DNA from: an uncultured Planctomycetia bacterium
GTDB taxonomy: Bacteria; Omnitrophota; Gorgyraeia; Tantalellales; Tantalellaceae
Assembly (NCBI GenBank): GCA_964409365.1
Contig: CAYPCX010000012.1
Coordinates: forward strand, 178-64,177
Length of the DNA stretch: 64,000 nucleotides
Direction: 5' to 3'
Shown here: positions 6,146-32,789 of the stretch, piece by piece
Position numbering within the stretch: the stretch's first letter is position 1
Layout: the number at the start of each line of letters is the position of its first letter
Made by a program: the position numbers and the translations under genes
Notes under the pieces: generated by a model
What the model was told of the DNA's origin: nothing
The model's database searches: none
The model's input: the letters and a program-made list of their open reading frames with translations, nothing else

Positions 6146-7534
<1,389 letters not shown>

Positions 7535-13904: not shown

Positions 13905-16900
13905 ACACCTCCAGGAGGCCCAGACGGGCCTGGGTGTCCTTGCCCCCGAGCACGCGTTTGTACTCGAACGGTATTACTTTAACGAACTTCCTGGCCGTTT
14001 CTTTGAAGTTCTTCATGACTTCTTTCGCGCGGGGGCTTCCCGTATACTTATGATGATTATGGAGAAGATCGTAAACAAGCGTCCTGTCATCGTCATCAAG
14101 ACGTTCCAGGTGTACCATCTTCTTGTTGCATCTTGATTCGAAACTGCCATCCTCGTCGTAAACATAGGCAATACCGCCGGACATGCCCGCCGCGAAGTTC
14201 TTGCCGGTTTTCCCCAAGACCACCACTCTTCCGCCGGTCATGTATTCACACCCATGGTCGCCTACTCCTTCGACGACCGCATAAAGCCCTGAATTTCTCA
14301 CACAGAACCTTTCGCCGGCCCTGCCGCGTATATACGCTTCCCCTGAAATAGCCCCGTAAAAAGTGGTATTCCCGATCAATATGTTCTCTTCCGCCTTAAA
14401 ACCCGCTTTCTTGTCGGGATAGATTATTATCTTACCGCCGGATATACCTTTACCCACGTAATCGTTCGCCAGGCCTTCCAACTCGAAAGTCACTCCCTTG
14501 GCGAGAAAAGCGCCGAAACTCTGGCCGGCTATGCCCTTGAATCTGCAACTTATTGAATCGGCTGGAAGTCCCATCTCCCCGTGCATCTTGCAGACCTCAC
14601 CGCTCATCATGGCCCCGGTCGCCCTGTCGGTATTATTGATGGGCATCTCTAACTTGACAGTGCCTGATCTTTTTATCACCTCGCCCGCCAGTTCCATAAG
14701 TTTCCGGTCAAGAACACGGTCGATACCATGATGCTGCCCGCAGGTGCAGCGCCTATGGTCCTCATCCTCGAGGTCCGGCTTATAGAGGAGGCGCGAGAAG
14801 TCCAGCCCTCTGGCCTTCTCCGGGATAATATCCTCGTTGATCTCCAACAGTTCCGTGCGACCCACAAGTTCGTCGATCTTTCTTACTCCAAGGGAGGCCA
14901 TTATCTCGCGCAGTTCCCTTGCCACGAAGAGCATGTAGTTCACCACATATTCCGGCCGTCCCTGGAACCTCTTTTCCAGCATCTCGTCCTGTGTGGCGAC
15001 ACCCACGGAACAGTTATTGAGGTGACAGTGCCTCAGCATCACGCATCCCAGCGTGATCAGTACCGCGGTACAAAAACCGAACTCTTCGGCGCCAAGTAAT
15101 GCGGCTATGGCGACGTCCCTTCCCGTACGCATCTGGCCGTCGGTCTGGAGGCGCACGCGGCTGCGGAGGCCGTTAAGGACAAGCGTCTGGTGCGTCTCGG
15201 AAAGTCCCAGTTCCCAGGGAAGGCCGGCATGCCTTATCGAACTTCTGGGCGATGCGCCCGTGCCCCCGTCCCCGCCGGATATCAGTATCATGTCGGCATG
15301 CCCTTTGGCCACGCCCGCCGCTATGGTACCCACGCCTATTTCGGAAACGAGTTTCACGCTGATACGTGCGCGCGGATTAGCGTTCTTCAGGTCGAAAATA
15401 AGCTGGGCCAGATCCTCTATAGAATAAATGTCATGATGCGGAGGCGGGGATATAAGTGTAACGCCCTGCGTTGTATACCGCGTCCGCGCTATTATCGCGC
15501 TTACCTTATGTCCCGGGAGCTGTCCCCCCTCTCCGGGCTTGGCTCCTTGGGCTATCTTGATCTGGAGCTCATCGGCATTGGTCAGGTAATTTATCGTGAC
15601 ACCGAACCTGCCGGAAGCCACCTGCTTTATCGCGCTCCGGACGGAATCGCCGTTGGGCAGGGTGCCGAAACGGGCCGGGTCCTCTCCTCCTTCCCCCGTG
15701 TTCGACTTTGCCCCGAGACGGTTCATGGCAATGGCGATCGCCTCATGCACGCTCCTTGATATGGACCCGAAGCTCATCGCGCCTGTCGCGAACCGTTTCA
15801 CGATCTCTTCTACCGGCTCGACCTCTTCAAGCGGGACCGGTGCGGTCTTTTTGAACTTCAAAAGACCTCTCAGCGTTGTCGGGTTCTTTGACTGGTCGTT
15901 TATCAATCCGGAGAATTCCTTGAAGACGGAATAATCGTTATTCCTCACCGAGTCCTGCAGCTTGGCTATGCTTTCCGGGTTCCACAAATGGAACTCGCCG
16001 TCCCTCTTCCACTGGTATACGCCTCCGGTGTCCAAGTACGGCGTTTCTTCTCCCCTTTCGGGGTACGCGCGCTTGTGCCGCCGGAGCGTTTCTCTGGCGA
16101 TATCATCTATTCCCACTCCCCCTATCCTGGAGACCGTGCCCGTAAAATACTTTTCTATCACATCATCGGCTATCCCCAGGGCCTCGAATATCTGCGCCCC
16201 TCGGTAGCTCCTCATAGTGGAGATACCCATCTTTGAAAGGATCTTAAGGAGCCCCTTACGCACCGCATTTATATAATTCTTTTGTCCCTCCTCCACTTTC
16301 ATGTCCAGGTCGCCTTCCTCCACAAGCCGGGCCACAGCTTCATACGCGAGATACGGGTTGACGCAGTCGGCACCGTATCCCATAAGAAGGGCGAAATGAT
16401 GCACTTCGCGTGGTTCTCCGCTCTCGACTATTATCCCTATCTCTGAGCGTATGGACCTCCTTACGAGATGCTGATGAACCGCGCTCGTCGCCAGAAGCGC
16501 CGGAAGCGCCACGTTATACCTGTCCGCGCCCCGGTCGCTCAGTATTAAAAAGGTGAACCCTTTTTCTACGGCGTACTCGGCCTCAAAACATACCCTTTCA
16601 GTCGCCTGGACAAAATCGTTCTCCGATCCGCTGAAATAAGTGTAGATCGTCTTTGTCTTGAACCCGGCCGTATTCATTTCCCTTATGAGCTCAAGTTCCT
16701 CATCGGTCAGAACAGGGTTTCGCACCTTCAGCTTCCGGCAGTGCTCCCTGCCTTCTTCAAGTATGTTCTTGCCCTTACCCATGTAACTATCGAGATTCAT
16801 CACTATCTCTTCCCTTATAGGGTCGATCGCGGGATTGGTGACCTGGGCGAACAGCTGCTTGAAGTAACTGTAAAGCATTTGCGGCTTTTTAGAAAGGACC

Positions 16901-18420
16901 GCGTGCGGGGTGTCGTTCCCCATCGAACCGACCGGTTCCTTACCCTCCTCCGCCATGGGTTTTATTATTTCTTTTATGTCCTCGCGGGTGTAGCCGAACG
17001 CTTTCATGGCGGAAAGAGCGTCTTCCGCGTTCTTTGTCCTTATTCCCGTTGCGGGCAGATCATCAAGCGAGACCAGGTTATCTTTCAACCATTCACCGTA
17101 AGGCCGGCGGTCCGAGAGTTCCTTCTTGATCTCGGAATCCCCTACTAAACGGCCGCGTGCGGTATCCACAAAAAGCATCTTGCCGGGTTCCAGGCGACCC
17201 GAAACAGCTATATCGGCGGGGTCAAAGTCAAGGACACCCACCTCGGACGCCATCGCGACCATGCCGTTTCTGGTCACGATGTAGCGCGCCGGGCGCAGAC
17301 CGTTCCTGTCCAAGACGGCGCCCACTTCGGTACCGTCCGTAAAAGCTATCGCCGCGGGGCCGTCCCAAGGCTCCATGAAACAGGCATTATACTCATAGAA
17401 ATCCCTTAATGACCCGGTCGTGAACGGGTCTTTTTCCCACGCGGCGGGTATAAGCATCATCATGACGTGCTCAAGCGGCCTTCCCGCCAGCGCGAGAAGC
17501 TCGAAAACATTATCTATGATGGCCGAATCGCTGCCGCCTTCGACGATGACCGGTTTTATCTTCTGTATATCCCGGCCGAAAAGTTCGCTCCCGAGAAGCC
17601 GCTCTTTCGCGCGGAACCAGTTCATATTGCCCCTGAGAGTGTTTATCTCACCGTTATGCGCAAGGAACCTGAACGGCTGCGCCAGGTCCCAGGTGGGAAA
17701 AGTATTAGTGCTGTACCTTGAATGGACAAGCGCTATGGCGCTTTCCACGTCGTTTTGCTTGAGGTCGGGATAAAAATCCCTGACCTGTCCCGGCATGAGA
17801 AGACCCTTGTAGCTGACGGTCCTTGAAGAAAGGTTGGTGATATAGAAAAATGTCTTTTGTTCTATTCCGGAAGACTTGACCGTATTCTCGATACGTTTTC
17901 TTATAACATAAAGTTTCCTTTCGAAAGCAAGCTGGTCGCCCGTCCCCGTCCCTTTTCCGATAAAGACCTGTTTTATCACCGGCTTGGTCTGGCGCGCGCC
18001 CCTGCCTATCAGGGAATCGTCCACGGGCACATCGCGCCATCCCAGGATATCCCCGCCTTCTTCTTTTATGACTTTTCTGAAAACATCCTCGCAGAAGATC
18101 CTTTCGCTCCCCTCGGTGGGAAGAAAGACAATGCCGGTACCGTAATCACCTGGATCCGGCAATTCTATGCCCGCGTCAGAGGAGACCCTGGAATAGAACC
18201 TGTGGGGGATCTGGATCAGGATCCCCGCGCCGTCACCTGTCTTAGGGTCGGCGCCGACCGCGCCGCGGTGGCTCATCCTTTCCAGTATTTCTGTACCCTT
18301 TTGTATGATGTCGTGCGACTTCTTGCCGTTCATCTCGCAGACGAACCCCACCCCGCAGCTGTCGCGTTCGAACCGCCGGTCATAAAGTCCCTGTTTTTCA
18401 GGCAAGCGTCCTTTTTTCAT
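13894..18420 (-). CDS. gltB: glutamate synthase large subunit
   Basis: 1508 aa; N-terminal CGVGF amidotransferase Cys, FMN/Fe-S central domain, C-terminal GXGXG domain. Confidence 0.95.
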   Translation of the reverse strand: MKKGRLPEKQGLYDRRFERDSCGVGFVCEMNGKKSHDIIQKGTEILERMSHRGAVGADPKTGDGAGILIQIPHRFYSRVSSDAGIELPDPGDYGTGIVFLPTEGSERIFCEDVFRKVIKEEGGDILGWRDVPVDDSLIGRGARQTKPVIKQVFIGKGTGTGDQLAFERKLYVIRKRIENTVKSSGIEQKTFFYITNLSSRTVSYKGLLMPGQVRDFYPDLKQNDVESAIALVHSRYSTNTFPTWDLAQPFRFLAHNGEINTLRGNMNWFRAKERLLGSELFGRDIQKIKPVIVEGGSDSAIIDNVFELLALAGRPLEHVMMMLIPAAWEKDPFTTGSLRDFYEYNACFMEPWDGPAAIAFTDGTEVGAVLDRNGLRPARYIVTRNGMVAMASEVGVLDFDPADIAVSGRLEPGKMLFVDTARGRLVGDSEIKKELSDRRPYGEWLKDNLVSLDDLPATGIRTKNAEDALSAMKAFGYTREDIKEIIKPMAEEGKEPVGSMGNDTPHAVLSKKPQMLYSYFKQLFAQVTNPAIDPIREEIVMNLDSYMGKGKNILEEGREHCRKLKVRNPVLTDEELELIREMNTAGFKTKTIYTYFSGSENDFVQATERVCFEAEYAVEKGFTFLILSDRGADRYNVALPALLATSAVHQHLVRRSIRSEIGIIVESGEPREVHHFALLMGYGADCVNPYLAYEAVARLVEEGDLDMKVEEGQKNYINAVRKGLLKILSKMGISTMRSYRGAQIFEALGIADDVIEKYFTGTVSRIGGVGIDDIARETLRRHKRAYPERGEETPYLDTGGVYQWKRDGEFHLWNPESIAKLQDSVRNNDYSVFKEFSGLINDQSKNPTTLRGLLKFKKTAPVPLEEVEPVEEIVKRFATGAMSFGSISRSVHEAIAIAMNRLGAKSNTGEGGEDPARFGTLPNGDSVRSAIKQVASGRFGVTINYLTNADELQIKIAQGAKPGEGGQLPGHKVSAIIARTRYTTQGVTLISPPPHHDIYSIEDLAQLIFDLKNANPRARISVKLVSEIGVGTIAAGVAKGHADMILISGGDGGTGASPRSSIRHAGLPWELGLSETHQTLVLNGLRSRVRLQTDGQMRTGRDVAIAALLGAEEFGFCTAVLITLGCVMLRHCHLNNCSVGVATQDEMLEKRFQGRPEYVVNYMLFVARELREIMASLGVRKIDELVGRTELLEINEDIIPEKARGLDFSRLLYKPDLEDEDHRRCTCGQHHGIDRVLDRKLMELAGEVIKRSGTVKLEMPINNTDRATGAMMSGEVCKMHGEMGLPADSISCRFKGIAGQSFGAFLAKGVTFELEGLANDYVGKGISGGKIIIYPDKKAGFKAEENILIGNTTFYGAISGEAYIRGRAGERFCVRNSGLYAVVEGVGDHGCEYMTGGRVVVLGKTGKNFAAGMSGGIAYVYDEDGSFESRCNKKMVHLERLDDDDRTLVYDLLHNHHKYTGSPRAKEVMKNFKETARKFVKVIPFEYKRVLGGKDTQARLGLLEVYDG

Positions 18421-18431
18421 GCTTCTTACCC

Positions 18432-18662
18432 CTATATTTTGTACCTTCTTACGTTGATGTCAAGCTTCCTTATCTTCACGCGCAGAGTATTCCGGTTTAT
18501 ACCCAGGATCTTCGCGGCAATGGACTGGTTGCCGTAAGACCTTTCGAGCGCCTTTTCGATAAGCGCCTTCTCAGTACCGCGTATGACTTTATCGTATACC
18601 TTACCTTTATCCTTTGTAAAAAACAAACTATCAATGCTTTTTGCTGCTTCCCTGAACATCAT
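18432..18662 (-). CDS. standalone Fis-family HTH DNA-binding protein
   Basis: 76 aa; C-terminus GNQSIAAKILGINRNTLRVKIRKL matches the Fis/NtrC HTH_8 pattern. Confidence 0.6.
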   Translation of the reverse strand: MMFREAAKSIDSLFFTKDKGKVYDKVIRGTEKALIEKALERSYGNQSIAAKILGINRNTLRVKIRKLDINVRRYKI

Positions 18663-18710
18663 CTCGCTACCTCCCGGCTAAAACTGCCCAGATATTGTGC
18701 ATGTAACAGT

Positions 18711-18769
18711 AAAAAAATACCCTTTCCGGAGGCGGGTCCTTCGACCTTTCCGAAAAGGGCATCTTTGCC
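18711..18769 (-). promoter_or_regulatory. leader attenuator upstream of fis-like/gltBD: ANTAR-type hexaloop hairpin overlapping an intrinsic terminator
   Basis: Minus strand: ggc-AAAGAU-gcc whose 3' arm is the 5' arm of terminator cccttttcgg/ccggaaaggg followed by UAUUUUUUU. Confidence 0.5.
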
Positions 18770-18867
18770 TTACTTACCGGTCCCTTCCGCGGGACCTATA
18801 TAAATAAAAAACCCCCGGAAACTTCGTCCCCAAGGGCCTCATTGCCGCTTAACTCCTTTGTTGAATT

Positions 18868-18897
18868 AATTGTAACACTTAGTGGTCTCATTGTCAA
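18868..18897 (-). promoter_or_regulatory. sigma70-type promoter (TTGACA-17-TACAAT) downstream of glnK stop, reading into fis-like/gltBD leader
   Basis: Minus strand reads ttgacaatgagaccactaagtgttacaat. Confidence 0.5.
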
Positions 18898-18945
18898 GTA
18901 AAAAATTGCCTAATAATTAAGCTATTATTGATTAAACCTTAAACA

Positions 18946-19287
18946 TCATCCTATCGCCACGCCTCCCTTCTCCCCCGTACGTATACGTATGCACTCGGGA
19001 AGGTCGAGAACGAAGATCTTACCGTCGCCTATGTTGCCGGTCCGTGCGCCTTTTATTATGGCGTCGATCGTAGGCTGGACGAAATTCTCATTTACCGCTA
19101 TTTCGAGACGCACTTTTTTCAGTAAATTTACGTCGTGCACTACGCCCCTGTAAGTTTCGGTATAGCCTTTCTGCTGGCCGCAGCCAAGGGCGTTAGTGAC
19201 CGTCATCTTGTAGACTTCCGCTTCATATAGCGCCTTTTTTACGTCCGGCAGCTTATGCGGCTGTATCATAGCAATTATAAGTTTCAT
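18946..19287 (-). CDS. glnK: nitrogen regulatory protein P-II
   Basis: 113 aa; T-loop ...[12 protein letters not shown]... with uridylylation Tyr; directly downstream of amtB. Confidence 0.9.
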
Positions 19288-19308
19288 GATCTCCCCTCCT
19301 TATATTTT

Positions 19309-20577
19309 CTACTTTGTGGTGAATATCTGGAAACCCGCGTAAGCCTCCATGCCGTGCTCGGTTATATCGAGCCCTTTGAGCTCTTCGTCCCTTGAGACCC
19401 TCAGGCCCATGATCATGTCGATCGCCTTGAAGATTATCGTCATACCCACCAGAACAAAAAGCACAACGGCACCCACGCCCAGGGCCTGGATACCCAGCTG
19501 GGTAAACCCGCCGCCGTGAAAAAGACCATCCCGGGCGAGGCCGAGCGCTTTGTGCCCGAAAAGGCCCACAGCCAGCGTGCCCCATACACCGTTCATCATG
19601 TGTACGGGAACAGCGCCTACGGGATCATCCACTCGGACCTTGTCCAGAAAAAGCGTTCCGAACACAACTAACACTCCCGCCACGAGGCCTATGATCATTG
19701 ATTCGAACGGAAGCACATAAGCGCACGGTGCCGTAATAGCGACAAGTCCCGCTAACGCACCGTTCATGGTCATTGAAAGATCGGGTTTACCGCAAATCTT
19801 CCAGGCAACGGCCATAGCCGTGAACCCGCCGACCGCCGCCGCGAGATTCGTGTTCATCGCGACTTTCGCCATGAGACTTCCGTTACCGACGCTTAAGGTA
19901 GACCCGGGATTGAACCCGAACCACGCGAACCAGAGTATAAGCGCGCCCAAAGAAGCCAGCGTCATGGAATGGCCCTCTATAGCGTTGGCCGACCCGTCCT
20001 TGTTGTATTTGCCTATCCGGGGACCCAGCATCATGGTCCCGACCAGTGCCGCCGTTCCTCCTACGGCGTGGACGACCGTGGACCCGGCAAAATCACCGAA
20101 ACCCAGGCCAGCCAGCCAACCGCCGCCCCATATCCAGTGTCCCACGAAAGGATAGATCGTGGCCGATATGAGAAAAGAGTATATAAGATAGCACTGGAAT
20201 TTCATCCTTTCGGCTATGCCCCCGGCGACTATAGTCGCGGCGGCCCCGCAAAAGACCGCATGGAAAAGCCACGCCGCCTCAAGAGGAATAGTCCCTTCAT
20301 GGGTGGCGTTCAACAGAAAGAACCCGTTGAACCCCATGAAACCGTTCCCTTTCCCGAACATGAACGCATAACCGAAAATGAAAAATCCCATGGACGCCAT
20401 ACAGAAATCCAGGAAGTTGTTCATAAGCACGTTACATGTGTTCTTTGTACGGATAAGACCGGCTTCAAGCATGCCAAACCCGGCCTGCATTATAAAGACC
20501 AGGAACGCGGCGATAAGTACCCATAAAGTGTCTATCCCCGCCGTACTTGCGAATTGTGTTGTCTCTGTGCCTGTCAT
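19309..20577 (-). CDS. amtB: ammonium transporter
   Basis: 422 aa, 11 TM; Amt family. Confidence 0.9.
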   Translation of the reverse strand: MTGTETTQFASTAGIDTLWVLIAAFLVFIMQAGFGMLEAGLIRTKNTCNVLMNNFLDFCMASMGFFIFGYAFMFGKGNGFMGFNGFFLLNATHEGTIPLEAAWLFHAVFCGAAATIVAGGIAERMKFQCYLIYSFLISATIYPFVGHWIWGGGWLAGLGFGDFAGSTVVHAVGGTAALVGTMMLGPRIGKYNKDGSANAIEGHSMTLASLGALILWFAWFGFNPGSTLSVGNGSLMAKVAMNTNLAAAVGGFTAMAVAWKICGKPDLSMTMNGALAGLVAITAPCAYVLPFESMIIGLVAGVLVVFGTLFLDKVRVDDPVGAVPVHMMNGVWGTLAVGLFGHKALGLARDGLFHGGGFTQLGIQALGVGAVVLFVLVGMTIIFKAIDMIMGLRVSRDEELKGLDITEHGMEAYAGFQIFTTK

Positions 20578-20601
20578 TGTTCCCCTCCTCTTTTATTGCT
20601 A

Positions 20602-21453
20602 TCAATAATCAAAACTTATCGTGATACCACCGTAAAATTCGCTCTCGGAGGCATCATTATATGTATCATGATCCAATATAAGTGAATAGGCCACGCTGGG
20701 CGTCACCGTGAAGTGGTTCAGGAAAGGTACGCTCACCTCTGCCGAGAACACCATATCGGCCCAGCCCGACTTATCCGTCCACTGTTCGTCGTTATACCCC
20801 GTGGTCATGGCCGCTGTCGCGGATATGCCGCTTCGGTCGAACTCGAACGTGTGGGATATCCCGAACAGGAAATACGACCCGTCCCCGCCGCCATCCGGGT
20901 TACCTTTGCCTCTTCCCACGTCCCAGTACCAGGTAAAGAACGGCTGGAGCATAATATCGTAGGATACGCCAAAATACACTTCATGCGTGTCGAAGAACTT
21001 GTCGTCCCAGTCGACGTTAGGAAAAGTGTAATAGATATAACCGACAGACGGCGTGAGCGGTTTCAGAAGATCAGGAATGTCGAAGTCCATCTTTTCCGAC
21101 ATCTCGCCCACATTAAAGGTGTAATCGACGGTGTAATCTATCTCGGTGAACTCCAGATATCGGCCGTTATCTTTTTCCTTGTCGCTGTTCAGCGTGTAGT
21201 TCGCCCACCAGTCGAACGTAAGGCCCCACTTGGACACCGAACCGTCGAGCTGCATTACCGGCTCGTCCCCAAGGTTCCACCCTCTCCATATATATTTGGT
21301 CATGAACGCCGTCGACAGTGAGACGTCCGGCATCCATCCCTCTTTTTCCGGAAGCCAGTCCTTGTCCGTGTCCAGGACCGCATACGCGTTCGCGGCAATA
21401 CCAAGGAACAACGCGACGGCTATCCAGATCAGCTTACCGTTCATTTTGGTCAT
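20602..21453 (-). CDS. putative outer-membrane beta-barrel (porin-like) protein co-oriented with amtB-glnK
   Basis: 283 aa; signal peptide (ANAYA), alternating amphipathic strands rich in Y/W/G/D, C-terminal aromatic ...SFDY. Confidence 0.45.
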   Translation of the reverse strand: MTKMNGKLIWIAVALFLGIAANAYAVLDTDKDWLPEKEGWMPDVSLSTAFMTKYIWRGWNLGDEPVMQLDGSVSKWGLTFDWWANYTLNSDKEKDNGRYLEFTEIDYTVDYTFNVGEMSEKMDFDIPDLLKPLTPSVGYIYYTFPNVDWDDKFFDTHEVYFGVSYDIMLQPFFTWYWDVGRGKGNPDGGGDGSYFLFGISHTFEFDRSGISATAAMTTGYNDEQWTDKSGWADMVFSAEVSVPFLNHFTVTPSVAYSLILDHDTYNDASESEFYGGITISFDY

Positions 21454-21537
21454 TTTTTTCCTCCTTTAAATAAAAAAGCCCTTTCTGATCTCTCCTAGAT
21501 CAAAAAGGGCTTCTATGCCTTGTAAACTTCTTTGTTT
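21454..21537 (-). promoter_or_regulatory. ANTAR-type dual-hairpin antiterminator element plus intrinsic terminator in leader of porin-amtB-glnK operon
   Basis: Minus strand: P1 aaac-AAAGAA-gttt (21524..21537), 4-nt linker, P2 ggc-AUAGAA-gcc (21508..21519) overlapping terminator aagcccttt...aaagggctt (21476..21512), U-tract, SD AGGAGG, ATG. Confidence 0.55.
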
Positions 21538-21569
21538 TTACACGCCTCGACTCCGCGGGGCGCGCCCTG

Positions 21570-22274
21570 CTACCACTTTCTTATCTCATGCGATATGATT
21601 ATGGCCTCCGCTATCTCCTTCATGCTCACGCGTTTGTTCATGCTGGATTTCCTTATAAGGTTGTAGGCCTCGTTCTCCGAAAGGTCCTGCTCCTTCATGA
21701 GGATCCCTTTCGCCTTTTCCACCTTCTTCCTGGTATCCAGCTCTTCCTGTATGACCTTCGTCTTGACCATGAGCTCGGTATTCTCGATGGCTACCGCCGC
21801 CTGGTTGGCCACAGCGCTCAACATGTTCACGTCGCTTTTCGTATACTCGTATGACTCCACGGTATAGACGTTGATCACACCGACGACCCTGTCCTTTACC
21901 ATCATCGGCACGCTCAGCATCGAGACAAGGCCTTCTTCCTTCGCCAGTTTTTTCTCTTTATATCTTTTGTCCTTCGCTACATCCTTGATCATAATGGGCT
22001 TTTTATCCTTGGCCACGAGGCCCACGATACCCTCGCCCACCTTGAGCGACCTTTCCTTGAGGTACTTTTGGCTCATCGACTGGGTCGCCCTGATCTTGAG
22101 CTCCCGCGTATCGGCATCGAGAAGCCACAGCGAGCATATCTTGGCGCTCATCACGTTAGCCGTGAGGTTCACCACGAGCTTGAGGATATCCTCAAGGTAC
22201 AGGTCGCTCGTTATGGCCTTGCTGATCTTGTTCAATGTCGCAAGGTAATCCTTCTCCGATGACTTCTTCATCAT
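21570..22274 (-). CDS. GAF-ANTAR RNA-binding antiterminator regulator
   Basis: 234 aa; N-terminal GAF-like domain; C-terminal ANTAR helices ...AKGILMKEQDLSENEAYNLIRKSSMNKRVSMKEIAEAII... Confidence 0.8.
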   Translation of the reverse strand: MMKKSSEKDYLATLNKISKAITSDLYLEDILKLVVNLTANVMSAKICSLWLLDADTRELKIRATQSMSQKYLKERSLKVGEGIVGLVAKDKKPIMIKDVAKDKRYKEKKLAKEEGLVSMLSVPMMVKDRVVGVINVYTVESYEYTKSDVNMLSAVANQAAVAIENTELMVKTKVIQEELDTRKKVEKAKGILMKEQDLSENEAYNLIRKSSMNKRVSMKEIAEAIIISHEIRKW

Positions 22275-22280
22275 ACGCTC

Positions 22281-24431
22281 CTACATAAGGAACAGCATCT
22301 CCGCGTAAGACGGCAGCGGCCAGACATTTTCCGGGATGAGGCCTTCGAGTGCGTCCACTATCTTACGCAGCTCGTTCATATCCGAGATCATCCCGGATGT
22401 CGAGTCCTTTTCTATGCTTTTTTCCAGCTCCTTGACGCCTTTCAGCGCGTCCTCGGTAAGTGAACATATCCCTTTCAAAAGCACCTGGGCCTCGGGGTTC
22501 TTGCAACCGCACCCCTGTACGTCCTCGATCGTGCCCGCGAGGTCGCTCTGGTATTCAAGCGCCGCCGGGATGATCATCGTATTGGCCATTGTTAGAGCTA
22601 TTCCCGCCTCGATCGTTATCGCCTTCTCGTACTGTTCCATGTATATCTCGCCGCGGGACAAAAGCTCCGACTTGGAGAGCACCTCGTGCCTTTCGAAAAG
22701 GTCCACTATCCTTTTATCCTTCACGACCTTGAGCGCTTCGGGAGTCGTTTTCAGGTTAGGCAGACCTCTCTTCTTGGCCTCTTTGTGCCACTTCTCGGTG
22801 TAATTGTCGCCGTCGAAGAGTATCCTTTTATGCTTCTTGACGATGTCCCGCAATATGGCCTGCAATGACTTGTTGAAATTCTTTCCGGCTTCTTTGTCGG
22901 CTTCCAGTTTCGTGCATATCTCATCCAGGGCGTCCGCCACTATGGTGTTAAGGACCACGTTGGAGCCCGCGCAGCTCTGGTTCGATCCCACCATGCGGAA
23001 CTCGAACTTGTTGCCCGTAAAAGCAAAGGGCGAGGTCCTGTTCCTGTCGGTCACGTCCCTGGGAAGGGTCGGGATCGAGGTAACACCCAGTTCTATAGTT
23101 TTAGCTTTTTTAGATGCCTTTGTTTTCCCTTTGCCGCCGATCTGTTCTATTATCTCCGTCAGCTGGTCCCCCAGAAATATCGACAGTATGGCCGGCGGGG
23201 CCTCATTCGCGCCGAGCCGGTGGTCGTTACCCGCCGTGGCGACGCTTGCCCTCAGCATATCGGCATAGGTATCGATGGCCTTCATCAGGGCACACACCAT
23301 GGTAAGGAATTTCGCGTTCTCCCTCGGATTATCCCCGGGGGCAAGCCAGTTCTTCCCGTCGGGCCCGCAGATCGACCAGTTGTTGTGCTTGCCCGAGCCG
23401 TTCACGCCGGCGTAGGGCTTTTCATGAAGAAGGCACACAAGTCCGTATTTCTCGGCCGTCTTCTTGAGGACTTCCATGGTCACCATGTTGTGGTCCACCG
23501 AAAGGTTCTGCTCCTCGAAAACGGGAGCTATCTCGAACTGCGCCGGGCATACCTCGTTGTGGCGGGTCTTAGCCGGGATACCCAGCCTCCAGAGTTCGCG
23601 GTCCAGGTCGTCCATGAACGACAGTACCCTTGTCTTGATGGCCCCAAAGTAATGGTCTTCCAGCTGCTGGTGTTTGGCCGGGGCCCTGCCGAAAAGCGTC
23701 CTGCCGGTCTGTATCAGGTCGAGCCGCTTTTCATAATGCGCCTTGTCGATGAGGAAATATTCCTGTTCCGGCCCCAGCGTGGAGTACGCCCTCTTATTTT
23801 TCACGTCTATCCCGAACAGCTTCGCCAGACGGCAGACCTGCCTGGAAAGGGCGTTCACCGACCTTAAAAGAGGCGTCTTTTTATCGAGGGCCTCACCGTG
23901 ATAAGAATAAAACGCCGTCGGTATACAAAGGGTGGCGCCGTTCTCCCCTTCTTTTATAAAGGCGGGAGATGTGGGGTCCCATGCCGTGTAACCGCGCGCC
24001 TCAAAAGTAGCCCTTAAGCCCCCGGACGGAAAACTTGACGCGTCAGGCTCGCCTTTTATAAGCTCTTTTCCGGAAAAGGATAGCATTACACCCCCTTCGT
24101 CGTCAGGGTTGATGAACGCGTCATGCTTCTCGGCTGTAGCTCCGGTAAGCGGCTGGAACCAATGGGTAAAGTGGGTCGCCCCTTTCGAAACAGCCCAGGT
24201 CTTCATGGCGTCGGCTACCTCGTCCGCGATCTTCGGGTCCAGGGAACGGCCCTCCCTTATCGTCGATATGAGCGACTTATAAGCTGTATCCGACAGGTAG
24301 TTCCTCATATTCTTGATGCTGAACACGTTCTCACCGTAGAACTCCGGAACGTTATCGATATTCAACATTCTTTCTCTTTTTGCCATGGTCTTTTCTCCTT
24401 CTTTTACCTTCAAAGCTGTTGTTCTTAACAT
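22281..24431 (-). CDS. glnN: glutamine synthetase type III
   Basis: ~717-733 aa, GSIII size; ORF-track start at 24482 is GTG; ATG at 24431 (MLRTT) or 24386 (MAKRER) with SD more plausible. Confidence 0.8.
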
Positions 24432-24549
24432 TTTAACACCCTTCCGTTTAAAATCAACATATAAAAAAACGTCCCATTCCACCGCCAGCTTTGCGGCTGA
24501 AATAGGACGTCTTCATCCTGCCTGTCTTGTCCGGGACCGCGGTGCCCGG

Positions 24550-24581
24550 AAATAAAAAAGGCGTTCTTCCCAGAACGCCTC
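24550..24581 (-). promoter_or_regulatory. intrinsic terminator/attenuator hairpin inside the glnN 5' leader
   Basis: aggcgttc-ugggaa-gaacgccu then UUUUUAUUU on minus strand, downstream of the 24615..24642 promoter and upstream of glnN start. Confidence 0.55.
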
Positions 24582-24614
24582 ATCGCAATTTGTGCACCAT
24601 CTTCGTGCAATTCT

Positions 24615-24642
24615 ATTTTACATGTTTTGCTGTTTTTGTCAA
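24615..24642 (-). promoter_or_regulatory. sigma70-type promoter (TTGACA-17-TAAAAT) for glnN
   Basis: Minus strand reads ttgacaaaaacagcaaaacatgtaaaat just after the hydrolase stop codon. Confidence 0.5.
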
Positions 24643-24648
24643 TACCTT

Positions 24649-26844
24649 TTATCTCACTTTTTTCACTTTACAGGCCGTGTCTTGTGAAAACTCCCGGATA
24701 TTTAACCGCAAAACCCCGCTCTTTGTGGATACCTTTTCCCTGGATATGACATCTCCCTTGAACGTGTCCCACCATTCCACCTTGTAAGCGCCTTCTTCGA
24801 GGTCAAAGACATCCAGGTAAGCGTTTTTGATAGGGGCCGGTTCTTTTGAATAGTAGGTGTTCTTCCAGTTATAGCTCTTATTCTGTATCCAGAAAAGGAT
24901 CTCATCCCCCACCACAAGACCGAGACACCTCGCGTTGGCGTATATTTCGCTGACGTAATCCGTCAGTGTGATCTCTTTTATGCCTATCCAGTCCTTCCCG
25001 GAGTTCTCGATACGGATAGCATGCTTCCCGGCGGGCACGCGTATTTCCAGGAACTGGTCATATACACACTGATATACCTTTTTATCCCTGCGGTAAAGAC
25101 TTCTTTTCCAGGGACCTTCCTTGCCCGGCCCGGTAGTGAACTCCCGGTCCAGCACTTTTTTATCGTCAAGATAGACCAAAAGCCGCGCCTGGTGCGCGAC
25201 CATGCCGACCTTTATCCTGAAGTTCCCTTCGGACGGAAAATCCACGTGATAGACCTGCTTCCCGTCTAACTTCGCGCCTTTCTCTCCCTGGAGATATTTA
25301 GTCGGTGTTCCGCCGATCAGGTCCCCGTTCTTCAGAACGGTGAATTCCTTTGCGTAGACCTTGCCCCATTTATCTGCCGGTTTGATCGTAAGATCTTTCA
25401 GGGCCGGTTTCTTCTTAGGGGCCTTCTTCGAAATGACCTGGCTCGTCACGGGGACTTTAACTATTTCCGAATCCCAGTTCACCCCCCGGAGAAACGCGTT
25501 CAGGCCCTTATAATGAAAATAAAGGTTCTTCGGCCTGATATAAGTATCCCACCACCAGCCCATAGCTGAACCGAAATACCTGCTCAGCGCGGTAGCCCAT
25601 ATACTGTTGTGAAGCAGTGTTCCTTTTCCGCCCGGATCATAGACCTTGTCGTCCTTGCCGGCATCCATCCCTATCTCGGCTATGAGGAACGGCTTATCAT
25701 ATACGGCCGCGAGCTCATAAGACTTCTGTATGCTCTCACTCACCACGTCCTTCACGGTCCTGTTCCCGTACAGGTGGATAGTTATGACGTCAATGTCTTT
25801 CACCGACCAGACCTTGCCCTTGTCAAAGATCTCTCCCCAGGGATATCCCATGCTGGTGGTCAAAAACTGTCCGTGCGGGTTGATCTCTTTTACGAAGGCA
25901 GACATCTCCTCTATCCATTCTCTTGGCGCATTAAGCTCGTTCCAGAACTCGAACGCCAGGATATTAGGCGAATAGCTCCACCTGGAGATAATGTATCTCA
26001 ACTTGTTCTTGTACCAGCGTTTCGCTTCGGGATCGGTAAAAAGATCCTCCGGCCGCGTACAGGGCCCTCCGTTCTTCCTGTTATAGGGATTCATCCCCCA
26101 CCTGTCTTCTGACCAGGATCCCTTTTCGATCATCAGGTCTCCGTACGTCCCAAGGCAGAGTATTATATATATGCCCCTTTTCTTCGCAAGATCGAGAAGC
26201 TTATCCAGATCCAGGGAAGCGTCCCTGTCATACCTGCCCATTTTTTCCCACTCGATCTGGAACGACCACTCCGAAAGCCAAACCCTTGTAAGATTACACC
26301 CGTTCTTTTCCAGCTCAGTGAAATACCTGTCAAAAACGGAAAGGCTGTTCTCATACGCCCAGGCTATGTTATGCCCTATACCGAAAAATGGCTCTCCTGA
26401 ATCGAATACCAGGTAATACGGATTGTTCCTGCTGCGCCGCAGGAATCCCCTGTTTTCGCTTTTTCTTACGTCAAAATGGCGGGTCCCGGTATTTTCATCC
26501 AGGGTTTTCGCAGCCGCATGCAGGGAATAATCGTACCTGCCCGGAACAACAGGGGTAAACCTGACCTCCCACAAGGAGATACCAGTACCCTTCTTATTGT
26601 AAAGACAGAAAGCCGGGATGGTCACTCGTCCTCCGTCGGGCAGGGTTATCCTGGCCTCGACCTTCACGTTGCCGGGATCGTTGGGATTTCCGTTGAAATA
26701 AGGCAGGGTGAACTCTAATATGAACGGCTCATATTGCCTGACCTTTTGCGGGCCGCTTACTTCCAAAGCCGCAGCTGACGCCGCAAGAAAGCAAAGAAAC
26801 ACCGCGAAAGCGGTGATCGCGCGCCTGCAAAAACGGGTATTCAT
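24649..26844 (-). CDS. secreted TIM-barrel glycoside hydrolase (GH5/GH140-like) with N-terminal Ig-like domain
   Basis: 731 aa; signal peptide; FEFWNE (NE catalytic acid/base as in GH5 clan A); N-terminal beta-sandwich resembling DUF5060. Confidence 0.45.
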   Translation of the reverse strand: MNTRFCRRAITAFAVFLCFLAASAAALEVSGPQKVRQYEPFILEFTLPYFNGNPNDPGNVKVEARITLPDGGRVTIPAFCLYNKKGTGISLWEVRFTPVVPGRYDYSLHAAAKTLDENTGTRHFDVRKSENRGFLRRSRNNPYYLVFDSGEPFFGIGHNIAWAYENSLSVFDRYFTELEKNGCNLTRVWLSEWSFQIEWEKMGRYDRDASLDLDKLLDLAKKRGIYIILCLGTYGDLMIEKGSWSEDRWGMNPYNRKNGGPCTRPEDLFTDPEAKRWYKNKLRYIISRWSYSPNILAFEFWNELNAPREWIEEMSAFVKEINPHGQFLTTSMGYPWGEIFDKGKVWSVKDIDVITIHLYGNRTVKDVVSESIQKSYELAAVYDKPFLIAEIGMDAGKDDKVYDPGGKGTLLHNSIWATALSRYFGSAMGWWWDTYIRPKNLYFHYKGLNAFLRGVNWDSEIVKVPVTSQVISKKAPKKKPALKDLTIKPADKWGKVYAKEFTVLKNGDLIGGTPTKYLQGEKGAKLDGKQVYHVDFPSEGNFRIKVGMVAHQARLLVYLDDKKVLDREFTTGPGKEGPWKRSLYRRDKKVYQCVYDQFLEIRVPAGKHAIRIENSGKDWIGIKEITLTDYVSEIYANARCLGLVVGDEILFWIQNKSYNWKNTYYSKEPAPIKNAYLDVFDLEEGAYKVEWWDTFKGDVISREKVSTKSGVLRLNIREFSQDTACKVKKVR

Positions 26845-27142: not shown

Positions 27143-28558
27143 TTAAAAGTCAAGGTGCGCTCTTGCGCCGTACACAAATATGGTCTGGTGGTCGCCCTGT
27201 GGTGAGGACTTTCCTATACCGTTCGGGTTCCAGATAACCTGAAAGTCAGGGCTTATGCCGAGATACGGGTTCAACTGACACCTGTAATATGCCTCAAAAT
27301 GGCCTTCGGCAAAACCGGCATCAGCGGCTCTTTTATATTCTTCACTCGGGAAAAGCTGTCCCACCGCGACCGCGATCACATCTTCTTCCCTGTTCCAGTA
27401 CTTGCCGGTCATCTGTGCGCCCGCCGACCACATCCATTCTACGGTCGGCCCCCCGTCGGCGGGGATAAGATCCGGCCTCTGCCACCCGCACCGCGTGAAG
27501 AAACCGAAGACATCTGTCACCATCTGATCCCAGGTCAACCCGAACCCGTAATTGATCTCCTTGTTGTCACTGCTCTCCGCTTGGCCCAGTTCCGTCAGCT
27601 TCGTATGGAACCTGTCGTTGACCCATCCGTAGAACCTGTAATTGCCTTCATACTGTTCGGGATCCGCCCCGAAAAGGGTCGCAGGTCTCAGGTTGACCTG
27701 CCCTATATAAACGCCGCCTTCGAATACGTCTTCCCAGTTAGCGTCACCTTCAAAAAAACCCGCGCTGAGGACCAGGAATTCGGCCGACTTGGGGCTCACT
27801 TCCGCCCGTAACCCGAAAGCGTTATCGGACGGCCATTCAAGCACGGGAGAATTATTAAAGAGCCCACCGAGGAACTGCGAAGTGTCATCGTTGGCATATT
27901 TGTTATCATCGAAATAATCCGTCGGGTCCAGCTTGCCAGCGGTTACCGTGAACTGTTTATCGAAAAGGTATTGTTCGTAATAGAACTTGTTCCCGATAAC
28001 GTCCGCTCCGGTGTCGTTGGCATTGTTATTTACGATGCTGAAAAGGGCCATCTCACCGTTGAGCGTGTCTCCCTGCCCTATTTCCAGCTCGATAAAAGCG
28101 CGCCCCCAATCCGCGAACCTGTGCTCTATGTCTATATCCCCTTTCCACGAACCATCGAAACGGCTGTCCTCGTCAGCCCCGGCATTATTGGCGTTCGGCG
28201 TACCCTGGACGATCGCCGTTACGTTGGCTCCTATCCTGAAACCCTCCCACTCTAGGACCTCGCTGATCTGTCTCTTGTGATCCACGTGTATGCCGCCTTT
28301 TTCGATCGGGACTTCTCTTTCATGGAACTTTTTGATAATCGGCCCTTCCGGCTTACCTTGCTGCGCCCCCTCGGCGGCAGTACCCTTTGGGGGCATACTT
28401 TGTTCGGAGACTTTCGCTTCAAGTTCGGCTACCCTCGCTTTCAGGGACCGGATCTCTTCCATGAGCTCTTTCACCGTAGGTTCGCCCCCTCCCGCCCGGG
28501 CGGGAACACAGTAAAGGATGAATACGAGGAACATAAAAATCAACATAACCCTTTTCAT
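27143..28558 (-). CDS. OprB-like carbohydrate-selective porin with N-terminal coiled coil
   Basis: 471 aa; signal peptide, coiled-coil KELMEEIRSLKARVAELEAKV, beta-barrel periodicity, terminal ...AHLDF. Confidence 0.45.
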   Translation of the reverse strand: MKRVMLIFMFLVFILYCVPARAGGGEPTVKELMEEIRSLKARVAELEAKVSEQSMPPKGTAAEGAQQGKPEGPIIKKFHEREVPIEKGGIHVDHKRQISEVLEWEGFRIGANVTAIVQGTPNANNAGADEDSRFDGSWKGDIDIEHRFADWGRAFIELEIGQGDTLNGEMALFSIVNNNANDTGADVIGNKFYYEQYLFDKQFTVTAGKLDPTDYFDDNKYANDDTSQFLGGLFNNSPVLEWPSDNAFGLRAEVSPKSAEFLVLSAGFFEGDANWEDVFEGGVYIGQVNLRPATLFGADPEQYEGNYRFYGWVNDRFHTKLTELGQAESSDNKEINYGFGLTWDQMVTDVFGFFTRCGWQRPDLIPADGGPTVEWMWSAGAQMTGKYWNREEDVIAVAVGQLFPSEEYKRAADAGFAEGHFEAYYRCQLNPYLGISPDFQVIWNPNGIGKSSPQGDHQTIFVYGARAHLDF

Positions 28559-29064: not shown

Positions 29065-30081
29065 TTAGCAGATACGGGGAAGCTGGTCAGATTCGAGCAT
29101 AGGAAGGATACGGGTCGATCCGATGCGGGTTCGGAGGCGGACTTCGCCTTTGTGGCGGGTGGTGGTACGGCCTATCAGACGGGCGCCGGGCCCCATGGCC
29201 TTTTTAACCCTGGATGCGTCTTCTTCGCTGACAAAGCAGACAAATTTCCCTTCATTCGCAACATACAGCGGATCAAAGCCCAGGACGTCGCAGAGTTTCC
29301 CGACGGCGGGCTTCACGGGGATATCCTTTTCAGATATTTCAATACCGATGTTCGATGACCGGGCTATCTCATTAAGCGTAGTGGCGAGTCCCCCTCTTGT
29401 GGGATCGCGCATAACGCTGATCTTTTCCGACGCCTTAAGACATTTTTGTGCTTCAAAATTCACATTTGCGCAGTCGCTTTTTATGGGGGGTTTAAACCCG
29501 AGGTCCTCTCTCGCGTTCAATATTGCCATACCATGCTCGGCTATACCGCCGTTTATAAGCACAAGGTCGCCGCTTTTCGGTTTGACGCCAACGCCCTTTC
29601 CTTTCTCTATCACACCTATGCCTGAAGTGTTGATGAACATCCCGTCACAGGCGCCTTGTTCGACGACCTTGATGTCACCTGTCACGACCTTAACATTTGC
29701 TTCCCGAGCGGCCTGCTTTATCGAGGAAGCGACCCTTCCAAGCACGGAGAACTCAAGCCCTTCTTCCAGGATGAACGCAAGCGACAAATAAAGAGGACGC
29801 GCGCCTTTCATGGATATATCGTTCACGGTCCCGCAAACGGCAAGTTTGCCTATGTCGCCGCCGGGAAAGAAAAGCGGTTTCACCACGTAGGAATCGGTAC
29901 TGAAAGCGAGGCGCTCCGCGTCCACCCTCAGTTCTGCGGCATCCGCCATCTCGTCGAGGATCCTGTTAGAGAACTTCAGACGCATATCCTCGACCAGCTC
30001 ATGCATGAGCTTCCCGCCGTTCCCATGCGCAAGAGTTATTGTCTTCCCTGAGACCTGAGACCTGAGACCTGAGACCTTCAT
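29065..30081 (-). CDS. hypE: hydrogenase maturation protein HypE
   Basis: 338 aa; PurM-like fold motifs, C-terminal conserved ...PRIC; coding N-terminus carries GGTCTCA heptamer repeats. Confidence 0.9.
   Translation of the reverse strand: MKVSGLRSQVSGKTITLAHGNGGKLMHELVEDMRLKFSNRILDEMADAAELRVDAERLAFSTDSYVVKPLFFPGGDIGKLAVCGTVNDISMKGARPLYLSLAFILEEGLEFSVLGRVASSIKQAAREANVKVVTGDIKVVEQGACDGMFINTSGIGVIEKGKGVGVKPKSGDLVLINGGIAEHGMAILNAREDLGFKPPIKSDCANVNFEAQKCLKASEKISVMRDPTRGGLATTLNEIARSSNIGIEISEKDIPVKPAVGKLCDVLGFDPLYVANEGKFVCFVSEEDASRVKKAMGPGARLIGRTTTRHKGEVRLRTRIGSTRILPMLESDQLPRIC
30050..30077. repeat. heptanucleotide tandem repeat GAGACCT x4 inside the first codons of hypE
   Basis: gagacct x4 directly after the ATG; encodes VSGLRSQVSG. 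Confidence 0.85.
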
Positions 30082-31116: not shown

Positions 31117-31137
31117 TTTTGCGCGCCTACATACCGC

Positions 31138-31398
31138 CTACACAAAAGTGTCCCCAGAACCTCCGTTTACACTCTCGGCGTTTATCACCGCTCTTAATTC
31201 GCCCAGGACCTTCTCCGTGTCTTCCGCCTCTTCCTTTGTGACTTTCCCGATCGCAAAACCGGCGTGCACGAGGACATGGTCGCCCTTCTTTACGCCGGCC
31301 AGGACGCCGAGCGATATCTCCCTTTTCACGCCGCCGAAATCAACGACGGCTTTTTCTCCCAAAATTTTAGTAATCCTCGCTGGAACTGCCAAACACAT
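31138..31398 (-). CDS. hypC: hydrogenase maturation chaperone HypC
   Basis: 86 aa beginning MCLAVP (Cys2). Confidence 0.85.
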   Translation of the reverse strand: MCLAVPARITKILGEKAVVDFGGVKREISLGVLAGVKKGDHVLVHAGFAIGKVTKEEAEDTEKVLGELRAVINAESVNGGSGDTFV

Positions 31399-31482
31399 AG
31401 TATTACCTCATAGTATTATAAACACCCGCCATAAAGAGGTATCTTAATTGCCTTGAGCGGGGCGTCAATGACCGAGCGAGCA

Positions 31483-31572
31483 TGGTGTCCGCGCGAAGCG
31501 CGGACGAGCGAGGGAATTGTCGAGACCGATTCCCTCGCTGGGGAAATCGGTCGTCCCTGCGAGAGGCAGTTA
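31483..31572. repeat. ~90 bp palindromic repeat element, copy 1 (hairpin gtccgcgcgaagcgcggac + gagcgagggaat..attccctcgctgggg + atcggtcgtccctgcgag)
   Basis: ~85% identical to 32684..32771; internal inverted repeats. Confidence 0.8.
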
Positions 31573-32637: not shown

Positions 32638-32683
32638 GACTGGTCTACTGGAAATGTTCGAACTGTTCCGAGCGGGCACGGTC

Positions 32684-32771
32684 CCCGAGGGCCAAAGGCC
32701 CGAGGGGGAGCGAGGGAATGACAGAGGCCGATTCCCTCGCTGGGGGGATCGGCCGTCCCTGCGAGGACAGC
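32684..32771. repeat. ~90 bp palindromic repeat element, copy 2 (between truncated hypA and hypF fragment)
   Basis: gagcgagggaatgacagaggccgattccctcgctggggggatcggccgtccctgcgag; preceded by gggccaaaggccc hairpin. Confidence 0.8.
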
Positions 32772-32789
32772 TCAAACATTTGTTGTACA

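Follow-up and report, generated by a model that had tools for sequence, protein, structure and literature searches.

How does a bacterium decide whether transcription that has already passed through a glutamine synthetase gene should continue into the genes for ammonium uptake? This question is raised by a short intergenic element in a 64-kb stretch of DNA from an uncultivated Omnitrophota bacterium (contig CAYPCX010000012.1 of assembly GCA_964409365.1; hereafter the window, to which all coordinates refer). The element lies on the minus strand and has two small hairpins, P1 and P2, the second of which overlaps an intrinsic terminator. On its 5' side is a gene for a protein with a GAF and an ANTAR domain, and on its 3' side are genes for a beta-barrel protein, the ammonium transporter AmtB and the P-II protein GlnK. 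We consider it likely, from the sequence and its relatives, that the element attenuates transcription in the ANTAR-type, protein-dependent manner, that the adjacent GAF-ANTAR protein is its partner, and that both belong to a regulon for ammonium assimilation. Below we show how the sequence is built, how the motif is conserved and covaries, how it overlaps the terminator, and which domains and conserved RNA-contact residues the protein has. The parts of the element, with lengths in nucleotides (nt), base pairs (bp) or amino acids (aa), are as follows.

21537..21524, minus strand: P1 hairpin, AAAC-AAAGAA-GUUU, 4 bp, hexaloop with A1 and G4
Between P1 and P2, minus strand: linker, ACAA, 4 nt
21519..21508, minus strand: P2 hairpin, GGC-AUAGAA-GCC, 3 bp, hexaloop with A1 and G4
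21514..21474, minus strand: intrinsic terminator, AGAAGCCCUUUUUGAUCU-AGGAG-AGAUCAGAAAGGGCUUUU, 18 bp
21477..21468, minus strand: U-tract after the terminator, UUUUUUAUUU
21465..21460 and 21453..21451, minus strand: ribosome-binding site (RBS) AGGAGG and ATG start codon of the 283-aa beta-barrel gene

An earlier interpretation made from the letters alone (the sequence-only reading) had placed P1, ACAA, P2, the terminator, the U-tract, AGGAGG and ATG in this order, and all of them are where it put them, as are the two hexaloops, AAAGAA and AUAGAA. It had also proposed that P2 and the terminator are mutually exclusive. The 5' arm of the terminator does contain the 3' arm of P2, together with the 3' half of the P2 loop. 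P1 begins 32 nt after the UAG stop codon of the GAF-ANTAR gene (21572..21570), and from the U-tract to the RBS there are only 17 nt, which are promoter-free. The element has every sequence-level feature by which Ramesh et al. 2012 (PMC3369931) recognized ANTAR targets: a pair of short stems, hexaloops that both carry A1 and G4, little sequence between the hairpins, exclusivity of P2 and terminator, and an adjoining ANTAR gene. In the EutV system, lengthening the linker between the hairpins abolishes antitermination (PMC8934654).

The energetics of the element argue for a protein-dependent switch. The minimum-free-energy fold of the intergenic region (RNAfold) is the 18-bp terminator plus P1, with z = -4.4 relative to shuffled sequences, and the terminator accounts for about -21 to -25 kcal/mol. 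The dual hairpin P1+P2, folded alone, has -4.6 kcal/mol and is not better than shuffled sequence. Because the terminator is strong and the dual hairpin is weak by itself, termination should be the default state, and P2 cannot compete unaided, so that a stabilizing protein would be required.

The sequence-only reading had called the element the leader of a porin-amtB-glnK operon, and amtB and glnK are indeed downstream, but we found no promoter-like site in the spacer that leads from the ANTAR stop codon to P1; one has to go back into the ANTAR coding region for the nearest match, a weak one (9/12). The element is therefore intercistronic, and not a promoter-proximal 5' leader. In this genome it would thus gate read-through from glnN-ANTAR into beta-barrel-amtB-glnK.

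A loose scan of the window for pairs of hairpins with ANNGNN hexaloops and stems of 3 bp or more found 28, compared to about 20 in shuffled sequences. This is not above chance, and we therefore rejected the loose scan as evidence by itself. A covariance-model search, which the sequence-only reading had suggested as a check, was more discriminating. Model R1 was made from 23 hand-picked instances and used to gather 65 matches in 80 related loci; model R2 was then rebuilt from the locus matches only, without any window sequence, and used to scan the whole window with filters off. With R2, which thus comes from other genomes only, the reported site scored 39.1 bits (E 4.8e-7). Elsewhere in the 64 kb, E<0.01 was reached at just two sites, both of them in the gltB leader (18866..18832, 29.1 bits, E 1e-4; and 18806..18755, 22.1 bits, E 5e-3), and the rest had E of 0.2 or more. 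Among the rest, we attribute to chance the matches at 25828..25783 (inside a GH5 open reading frame, ORF), 33596..33656, 29224..29186 and 1203..1179 (at the end of a coding region beside an Ogg glycosylase gene), all of which have no terminator and no nitrogen genes nearby.

Two other tests gave similar results. The P2 core GGCANNGNNGCC, generalized from the Geobacter GnfR site, occurs seven times in the window (2.1 expected; none of 100 shuffled sequences reached seven), and its three intergenic minus-strand matches are the reported site and the two gltB-leader sites. There are 73 terminator-like hairpins on the two strands, and a C-G-closed R-N-N-G hexaloop overlaps the 5' arm at four nitrogen sites plus one weak intragenic site; gltB unit B and glnN unit 2 (listed below) miss only the strict filters of this test. 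Ordinary end-of-gene terminators, at 6121 and 62555, are without such hexaloops. One terminator-like hairpin with the hexaloop agc-AAGGCG-gct (35562..35514) is part of a NADH-dehydrogenase/antiporter ORF, at its 3' end, and we set it aside as chance. Searches against Rfam, at gathering thresholds for the whole window and at permissive thresholds for 18300..24800, gave chance-level matches only, for example mir-5681 and the PyrG leader. Separately, we observed that 62529..62555 is a perfect terminator in both directions (uuaaacccuu-cuuuuga-aaggguuuaa), with U-runs on both strands and no hexaloops.

Conservation of the motif was examined in 80 species-level loci from Omnitrophota and Thermodesulfobacteriota, the regulator being 62-68% identical in the latter. 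Far from being absent from orthologous leaders, an outcome that the sequence-only reading had named as counting against it, the motif is kept, with covariation, within 120 nt past the ANTAR stop codon in 30 of the 80 loci, spanning the two phyla. Nearly all of the model matches (62 of 65) are on the strand of the ANTAR gene. The first loop has six nucleotides in 50 of the 65 matches and the second in 62. Loop position 4 is G in 98-100%, and position 1 is A in 78-85% and otherwise mostly G; position 2 is A in about 90%, and positions 3, 5 and 6 are free. The linker is most often 4 nt long and measures 2-7 nt in 57 of 65 matches. Stem positions are paired in 94.7% of cells, versus 81% in column shuffles and at most 50% with partners slid. 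There are compensatory double changes at five of the seven pairs, and none of 500 shuffles attains the covariation score. The loop-closing C-G pairs are almost invariant. In Thermodesulfobacteriota loci, AAC/GUU is replaced by AUAC/GUAU, and GGC/GCC by GAC/GUC. The 5' arm of a terminator overlaps the P2 loop or 3' arm in 52 of the 62 same-strand matches (84%), versus 13% at random positions, and this overlap is a feature absent from the covariance model.

The genes next to the motif make a coherent set of targets. They include amtB/glnK/beta-barrel, fis-gltB, glnN or glnA together with ANTAR, gdh, carA, pyrG and a Glu_synthase-like gene; in relatives the motif is found, too, before type-I glnA, within glnA-ANTAR operons, and before a small ORF that is sigma70-like. 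In the relatives L035, L044 and L082 there is a promoter directly 5' of P1. A metagenome scan with the exact consensus motif found two contigs only, too few for an independent test of co-occurrence with ANTAR genes.

Two side observations in the relatives concern this motif. In L035, L036, L040, L049, L059 and the metagenome contig L082 (1013..1250), the first gene past the attenuators encodes a sigma70-like protein of 174-179 aa with weak Pfam matches to region 2 and region 4. This gene is not in the window, and its position suggests a cascade from antiterminator to sigma factor in those relatives. L025 contains, at 1910..2231 on the strand opposite the ANTAR gene, a 49-nt tandem repeat in 6.5 copies. 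It is mostly intergenic between two plus-strand ORFs and overlaps the last 68 nt of the first. Its unit, GGC-AYAGGU-GCC-auacauccgucauugguauuuauuuuu, has a P2-type hexaloop hairpin (A1, G4), a small hairpin and a U-run. The repeat could serve as a decoy or sponge for ANTAR, in the manner of EutX/Rli55, or it could be unrelated.

The presumed partner is encoded directly upstream of the element, as had been claimed, and the window has no other ANTAR ORF. Pfam recognizes GAF_2 (5e-23) and ANTAR (PF03861; 5.3e-20, better than the family cutoff) in its 234 aa. The ANTAR domain matches those of EutV (6wsh, 2.8e-12), Rv1626 (5e-9) and NasR (1.6e-6) in phmmer searches. The RNA contacts of EutV were taken from PMC8934654 (the chain index is the paper's numbering plus 2). 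Ten of the eleven are identical in the GAF-ANTAR protein: R142, K143, K147, K149, E160, Y164, R168, M172, N173 and R175. These include all of the residues that bind the flipped G4 (R142, K149, E160 and Y164) and the M172 plug. A heptad-like stretch at about residues 165-182 aligns with the coiled-coil linker of EutV.

The sensor domain resembles known sensors of nitrogen status. The closest solved structure is an unannotated Geobacter GAF protein (3e0y, 1e-17), and the next matches in the PDB are the GAF domains of PtsP/EI-Ntr (3ci6, 2.5e-16; 3trc, 5.7e-16). The best NCBIfam matches are PtsP (3.4e-22) and NifA (2.4e-20), both far under the cutoffs for full-length equivalogs. The GAF domain of NifA binds 2-oxoglutarate. 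Glutamine binds EI-Ntr's GAF domain and inhibits autophosphorylation (PMC4848567). Kinship to the GAF domains of these nitrogen sensors leads us to propose that the sensor reads nitrogen status, and it suggests glutamine or 2-oxoglutarate as the candidate signal. Nitrogen limitation normally induces such target genes, so RNA binding would be on at low glutamine and/or high 2-oxoglutarate. The regulator is also unusually conserved for a regulator. More than 100 clusters are 75-84% identical to it, all from Candidatus Omnitrophota wherever a name is given, and one close homolog is labelled Margulisiibacteriota; this conservation, with the identity to Thermodesulfobacteriota given above, would fit either strong constraint or lateral transfer.

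The window has about seven attenuators of this sort, and the reported site is one of them. The others precede gltB, glnN and gdh, and have the following parts.

18897..18869, minus strand: gltB-leader promoter, TTGACA-17-TACAAT, near-consensus, two units directly after it
18862..18851, minus strand: gltB unit B, P1, AAC-AAAGGA-GUU
18846..18835, minus strand: gltB unit B, P2, GGC-AAUGAG-GCC
18840..18808, minus strand: gltB unit B, terminator plus U6AUUU
18796..18779, minus strand: gltB unit C (18796..18711), P1', GGUCCC-GCGGAA-GGGACC
18769..18758, minus strand: gltB unit C, P2', GGC-AAAGAU-GCC
18764..18715, minus strand: gltB unit C, terminator plus U7
24642..24615, minus strand: glnN-leader promoter, TTGACA-16-TAAAAT
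24609..24593, minus strand: glnN unit 1, P1, UGCAC-GAAGAUG-GUGCA, a heptaloop with G4 kept
24587..24576, minus strand: glnN unit 1, P2, UGC-GAUGAG-GCG
24581..24558, minus strand: glnN unit 1, terminator plus U6
24547..24534, minus strand: glnN unit 2 (24547..24463), P1', GGGC-ACCGCG-GUCC
24518..24505, minus strand: glnN unit 2, P2', GGAU-GAAGAC-GUCC, with a U.G closing pair
24509..24470, minus strand: glnN unit 2, terminator plus U7
7691..7663, minus strand: gdh-leader promoter, TTGACG-17-GATAAT
7633..7616, minus strand: gdh single hexaloop hairpin, AAGAAC-AAAGGC-GUUCUU, inside the 5' arm of the terminator
7627..7594, minus strand: gdh-leader terminator

The glnN leader was interpreted with the help of 13 orthologous leaders. 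In their alignment, an (A/U)GC-RANGAR-GC hairpin is conserved and runs into the terminator GGCGUUC...GAACGCC, and the 4-bp hairpin ahead of it covaries (GCAC/GUGC, GUAU/GUAC, ACAC/GUGU) with G4 kept. The element GGAU-RANGAY-GUCC is also conserved across glnN leaders. P2 of unit 1 had been drawn as gcg-AUGAGG-cgu, which has no G4, and the alignment led us to replace it by UGC-GAUGAG-GCG. The gdh leader may be a single-hairpin unit of the same regulon, as judged from its sequence: L007, L009 and L055 keep GAAC-AAAGRC-GUUC in their gdh leaders, which also have a P1 (GAUAC...GUAUC). Directly 5' of the gdh hairpin, at 7629..7637 on the minus strand, is GGCAAAGAA, which matches the P2 consensus in its 5' arm and loop but has no 3' arm. 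This may represent a second motif that has decayed or that overlaps.

The genes of the locus and of the putative regulon are the following.

22274..21570, minus strand: GAF-ANTAR regulator, 234 aa, 6 nt past the glnN stop codon
20602..21453, minus strand: 283-aa outer-membrane beta-barrel protein (assigned by fold only), first gene under putative control
19309..20577, minus strand: amtB, ammonium transporter (Pfam)
18946..19287, minus strand: glnK, P-II protein (Pfam)
22281..24386, minus strand: glnN, type III glutamine synthetase (Pfam), start revised
12453..18662, minus strand: putatively regulated operon of a 76-aa Fis-type helix-turn-helix (HTH) gene (18662..18432), gltB (18420..13894) and a gltD-like gene (13904..12453)
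6146..7525, minus strand: gdh, glutamate dehydrogenase

The start of glnN was revised. In the ORF list it is GTG 24482, which runs over unit 2 of the leader and its terminator; translation most likely begins at ATG 24386, with an AAGGAG RBS 8 nt 5' of it. Because the listed start covers the second leader terminator, automatic gene calls may hide such a leader. The 283-aa protein had been called a porin. The beta-barrel fold is borne out by modeling, but the protein has no Pfam or NCBIfam match and belongs to no described porin sequence family. All 62 of its homologs are labelled 'hypothetical protein' and all are from Omnitrophota. The AlphaFold (AF2) model, from a 39-sequence alignment, has a mean confidence (pLDDT) of 88 and consists of an N-terminal signal helix followed by about 14 strands; its Foldseek matches in the PDB are Tsx, FapF, NanC, OmpG and OmpF (probability 1.0, TM-score about 0.5). 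By its modeled fold, the protein is an outer-membrane channel.

In the region after glnK (18900..18945, minus strand) we found no strong terminator, only an AT-rich hairpin and a U7 run before the gltB-leader promoter, so amtB-glnK transcripts may run into attenuator B. The 76-aa protein, a stand-alone HTH_8 protein of Fis/NtrC type (18432..18662, minus strand), sits between the tandem attenuators and gltB, and the same small gene is also found 5' of gltB in several related loci (L015, L020, L030 and others). Neighbors unrelated to the finding include hydrogenase maturation genes at 29065..32793 (minus strand; a HypE-like AIR synthase family protein, HypD and the C-terminal part of HypF), an OprB-family porin at 27143..28558 (minus strand) and a GH5/DUF5060 glycoside hydrolase at 24649..26844 (minus strand).

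Based on these results, we propose the following mechanism, in which RNA binding by the GAF-ANTAR protein, the direction of its response and its ligand are what we infer. RNA polymerase from the glnN promoter would transcribe glnN and the GAF-ANTAR gene, and then meet the strong terminator ahead of beta-barrel-amtB-glnK. By default, the terminator would form and transcription would stop. If GAF-ANTAR is in its RNA-binding state, a dimer would take first the hexaloop of the emerging P1 and then that of P2, recognizing the flipped-out G4. With P2 held closed, its GCC and loop bases would be unavailable for the 5' arm of the terminator until polymerase is past the U-tract, allowing read-through into amtB-glnK. 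The movement of the dimer from P1 to P2 follows the revised EutV model (PMC8934654). The same logic could apply at the two tandem units before glnN-ANTAR, at the two before fis-gltB-gltD, and probably at the single-hairpin unit before gdh. GAF-ANTAR would thus regulate the ammonium-assimilation genes by acting on RNA. Two attenuators guard its own operon, glnN-ANTAR, so the prediction is that the regulator autoactivates. Two attenuators in series, at glnN and gltB, would multiply the stringency of the off state and sharpen the response.

A wider reading is more speculative. It is conceivable, although we would not bet on it, that GAF-ANTAR is a one-component sensor of glutamine or 2-oxoglutarate and a master regulator of ammonium assimilation, acting purely via RNA antitermination, in Omnitrophota and part of the Thermodesulfobacteriota. 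Its regulon would then cover glutamine synthetase (GS), glutamate synthase (GOGAT), glutamate dehydrogenase (GDH) and AmtB-GlnK, and in relatives CarA, PyrG and a sigma factor like those of the extracytoplasmic function (ECF) class. If so, GAF-ANTAR would fill the role that NtrBC, GlnR/TnrA or NtcA have elsewhere, and its signal and regulon would be the first to be defined for any GAF-ANTAR protein.

The most serious rival to a GAF-ANTAR partner is a partner encoded outside the 64 kb. The attenuator would be genuine, but its partner would be another ANTAR protein of the same genome, for example a GnfR-like REC-ANTAR protein, and GAF-ANTAR would have other or partial targets. ANTAR domains recognize loops and backbone generically, and any of them could bind (PMC8934654); the same P2 consensus in Geobacter is served by a REC-ANTAR protein; and our view covers only 64 kb of the genome. 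The position of the motif speaks for the nearer candidate, however. It is directly past the GAF-ANTAR gene in the 30 loci from two phyla, the glnN/glnA-ANTAR operon itself bears it, and there is no second ANTAR ORF in the window. Because synteny over 30 species argues for the adjacent gene, we consider an outside partner improbable. Besides the limited view of the genome, several points weigh against an attenuator controlled by GAF-ANTAR in a positive nitrogen regulon. The covariation alignment was fitted to our own model, so its counts favor the structure; the stems are merely 3-4 bp and highly conserved in sequence; and Rfam 15 is without an ANTAR-target family, so there is no curated model for comparison. 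In the regulator, one EutV contact is changed (R177, a backbone contact, is S), and the candidate ligand comes solely from domain-level GAF similarity that is far under family cutoffs. A search of the gdh leader in the window found no convincing P1. In addition, gdh is physiologically odd in a positive regulon with GS, GOGAT and AmtB, because Geobacter represses gdhA under nitrogen limitation (PMC2995071).

The remaining alternatives deny an ANTAR target altogether. A plain Rho-independent terminator that ends the glnN-ANTAR operon would be expected about where this one is, 60-100 nt past the ANTAR stop codon, and its small hairpins could be fortuitous: loose dual-hexaloop motifs arise by chance, as the count given above indicates, and such hairpins are thermodynamically insignificant alone. 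But the downstream genes have no promoter of their own, only the short stretch between U-tract and RBS, and the hairpins are conserved with an invariant G4 and covarying stems. At gltB, glnN and gdh, the hairpin-terminator unit comes directly after a strong promoter, with no operon ending there, and the ordinary terminators at 6121 and 62555 have no such hexaloops. We regard this explanation as very unlikely. We think no better of the possibility that AAC-N6-GTT and GGC-N6-GCC are DNA operators for a dimeric factor, such as the small Fis-type HTH protein encoded before gltB, even though both elements are palindromic as DNA and the conserved 76-aa HTH protein belongs to the putative regulon. 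Pairing is kept via G-U wobbles, which are asymmetric in DNA, in about 15 cells at four of the seven pairs; the loops are asymmetric and strand-specific (A1, A2, G4), in keeping with the bias to the coding strand; and the sites are 3' of the -10 box, transcribed, and overlap a terminator. Finally, the element might be a protein-independent riboswitch or attenuator, for example a glutamine-sensing RNA. Known glutamine riboswitches control nitrogen genes, and the element has the form of a terminator/antiterminator alternative, but it has no Rfam match, glnA-type motifs included, two hairpins of 3-4 bp that are unstable alone give no ligand pocket, and the conservation (G4, A1 and the closing C-G pair) is the pattern of protein contacts in ANTAR targets. 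A riboswitch thus seems extremely improbable, and we favor an ANTAR attenuator with GAF-ANTAR as its partner.

GAF-ANTAR is among the commonest ANTAR domain combinations, and the element offers a concrete, testable regulon and RNA target for this architecture. The likeness of the sensor to the GAF domains of PtsP and NifA suggests candidate ligands for direct screening. Tandem attenuators with positive autoregulation would make a circuit compact enough for rebuilding in a heterologous host. To our knowledge, Omnitrophota is a phylum without cultured representatives, and the locus gives a first view of possible nitrogen-assimilation control there.

Our literature search found no description of ANTAR nitrogen control in Omnitrophota, nor of GAF-type nitrogen antiterminators. 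The ANTAR papers of 2012, 2020 and 2025 consulted here have no characterized GAF-ANTAR protein and name the architecture as uncharacterized. The closest characterized system is GnfR of Geobacter, which the sequence-only reading had accurately cited as a precedent for amtB/glnK control with a REC sensor. GnfR is a phosphorylated REC-ANTAR response regulator, and its site CAGGCAANGGCGCC, 5' of a hypothetical-glnK-amtB operon, is experimentally supported (PMC2995071). In both systems an ANTAR protein overrides, or would override, leader terminators of nitrogen genes, including that operon in Geobacter, and CAGGCAANGGCGCC is the same P2 (a GGC stem, an A1-A2-N-G4 loop and GCC) overlapping a terminator. 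However, GnfR is under a sigma54/GnfLM cascade and aimed at nitrogen fixation, whereas here a one-component GAF-ANTAR protein is found with sigma70-like promoters, the targets belong to ammonium assimilation (GS III, GOGAT, GDH and AmtB), and the regulator is encoded inside a regulated operon.

Other ANTAR systems share different parts of the arrangement. The eut attenuators of the EutV/EutW system of Enterococcus faecalis also have P1 and P2 hexaloops with A1 and G4, a short linker and P2-terminator exclusivity; several of them, some intercistronic, are in one gene cluster, and most EutV contact residues are kept in GAF-ANTAR, as described above (PMC3369931; PMC8934654). In contrast, EutV has a REC sensor and serves a catabolic pathway, for ethanolamine, whereas the present system has a GAF sensor and concerns nitrogen assimilation; it also conserves A at loop position 2, and its loop-closing pair is nearly always C-G. 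In Firmicutes, Ramesh et al. predicted ANTAR regulons 5' of genes for Amt, P-II, GS and GOGAT, with pairs of GS and ANTAR genes among them (PMC3369931). Their Table S2 lists genomes of Desulfotomaculum acetoxidans, with at least 13 attenuators, Ca. Desulforudis, Alkaliphilus and C. thermocellum. Those regulons likewise comprise several operons and many attenuators, with an ANTAR gene beside GS and an RNA match adjoining. They are from another phylum, their partners are of response-regulator type where stated, with GAF unmentioned, and they too are predictions. One-component proteins with a sensor fused to ANTAR via a helical linker are known in Klebsiella NasR (NIT-ANTAR) and Nakamurella PAL (PAS-LOV-ANTAR), although their sensors are NIT and LOV and their signals nitrate and light. 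The GAF domains of PtsP/EI-Ntr and NifA, among the closest sequence relatives of the sensor domain, both report nitrogen status; their outputs are a phosphoenolpyruvate (PEP) phosphotransferase and a sigma54 AAA+ activator, not ANTAR, so the likeness is at the domain level only. The mechanism itself is thus already known from other bacteria, and what is new here is the phylum and the uncharacterized GAF sensor, the intercistronic placement of the element, and its being one of about seven.

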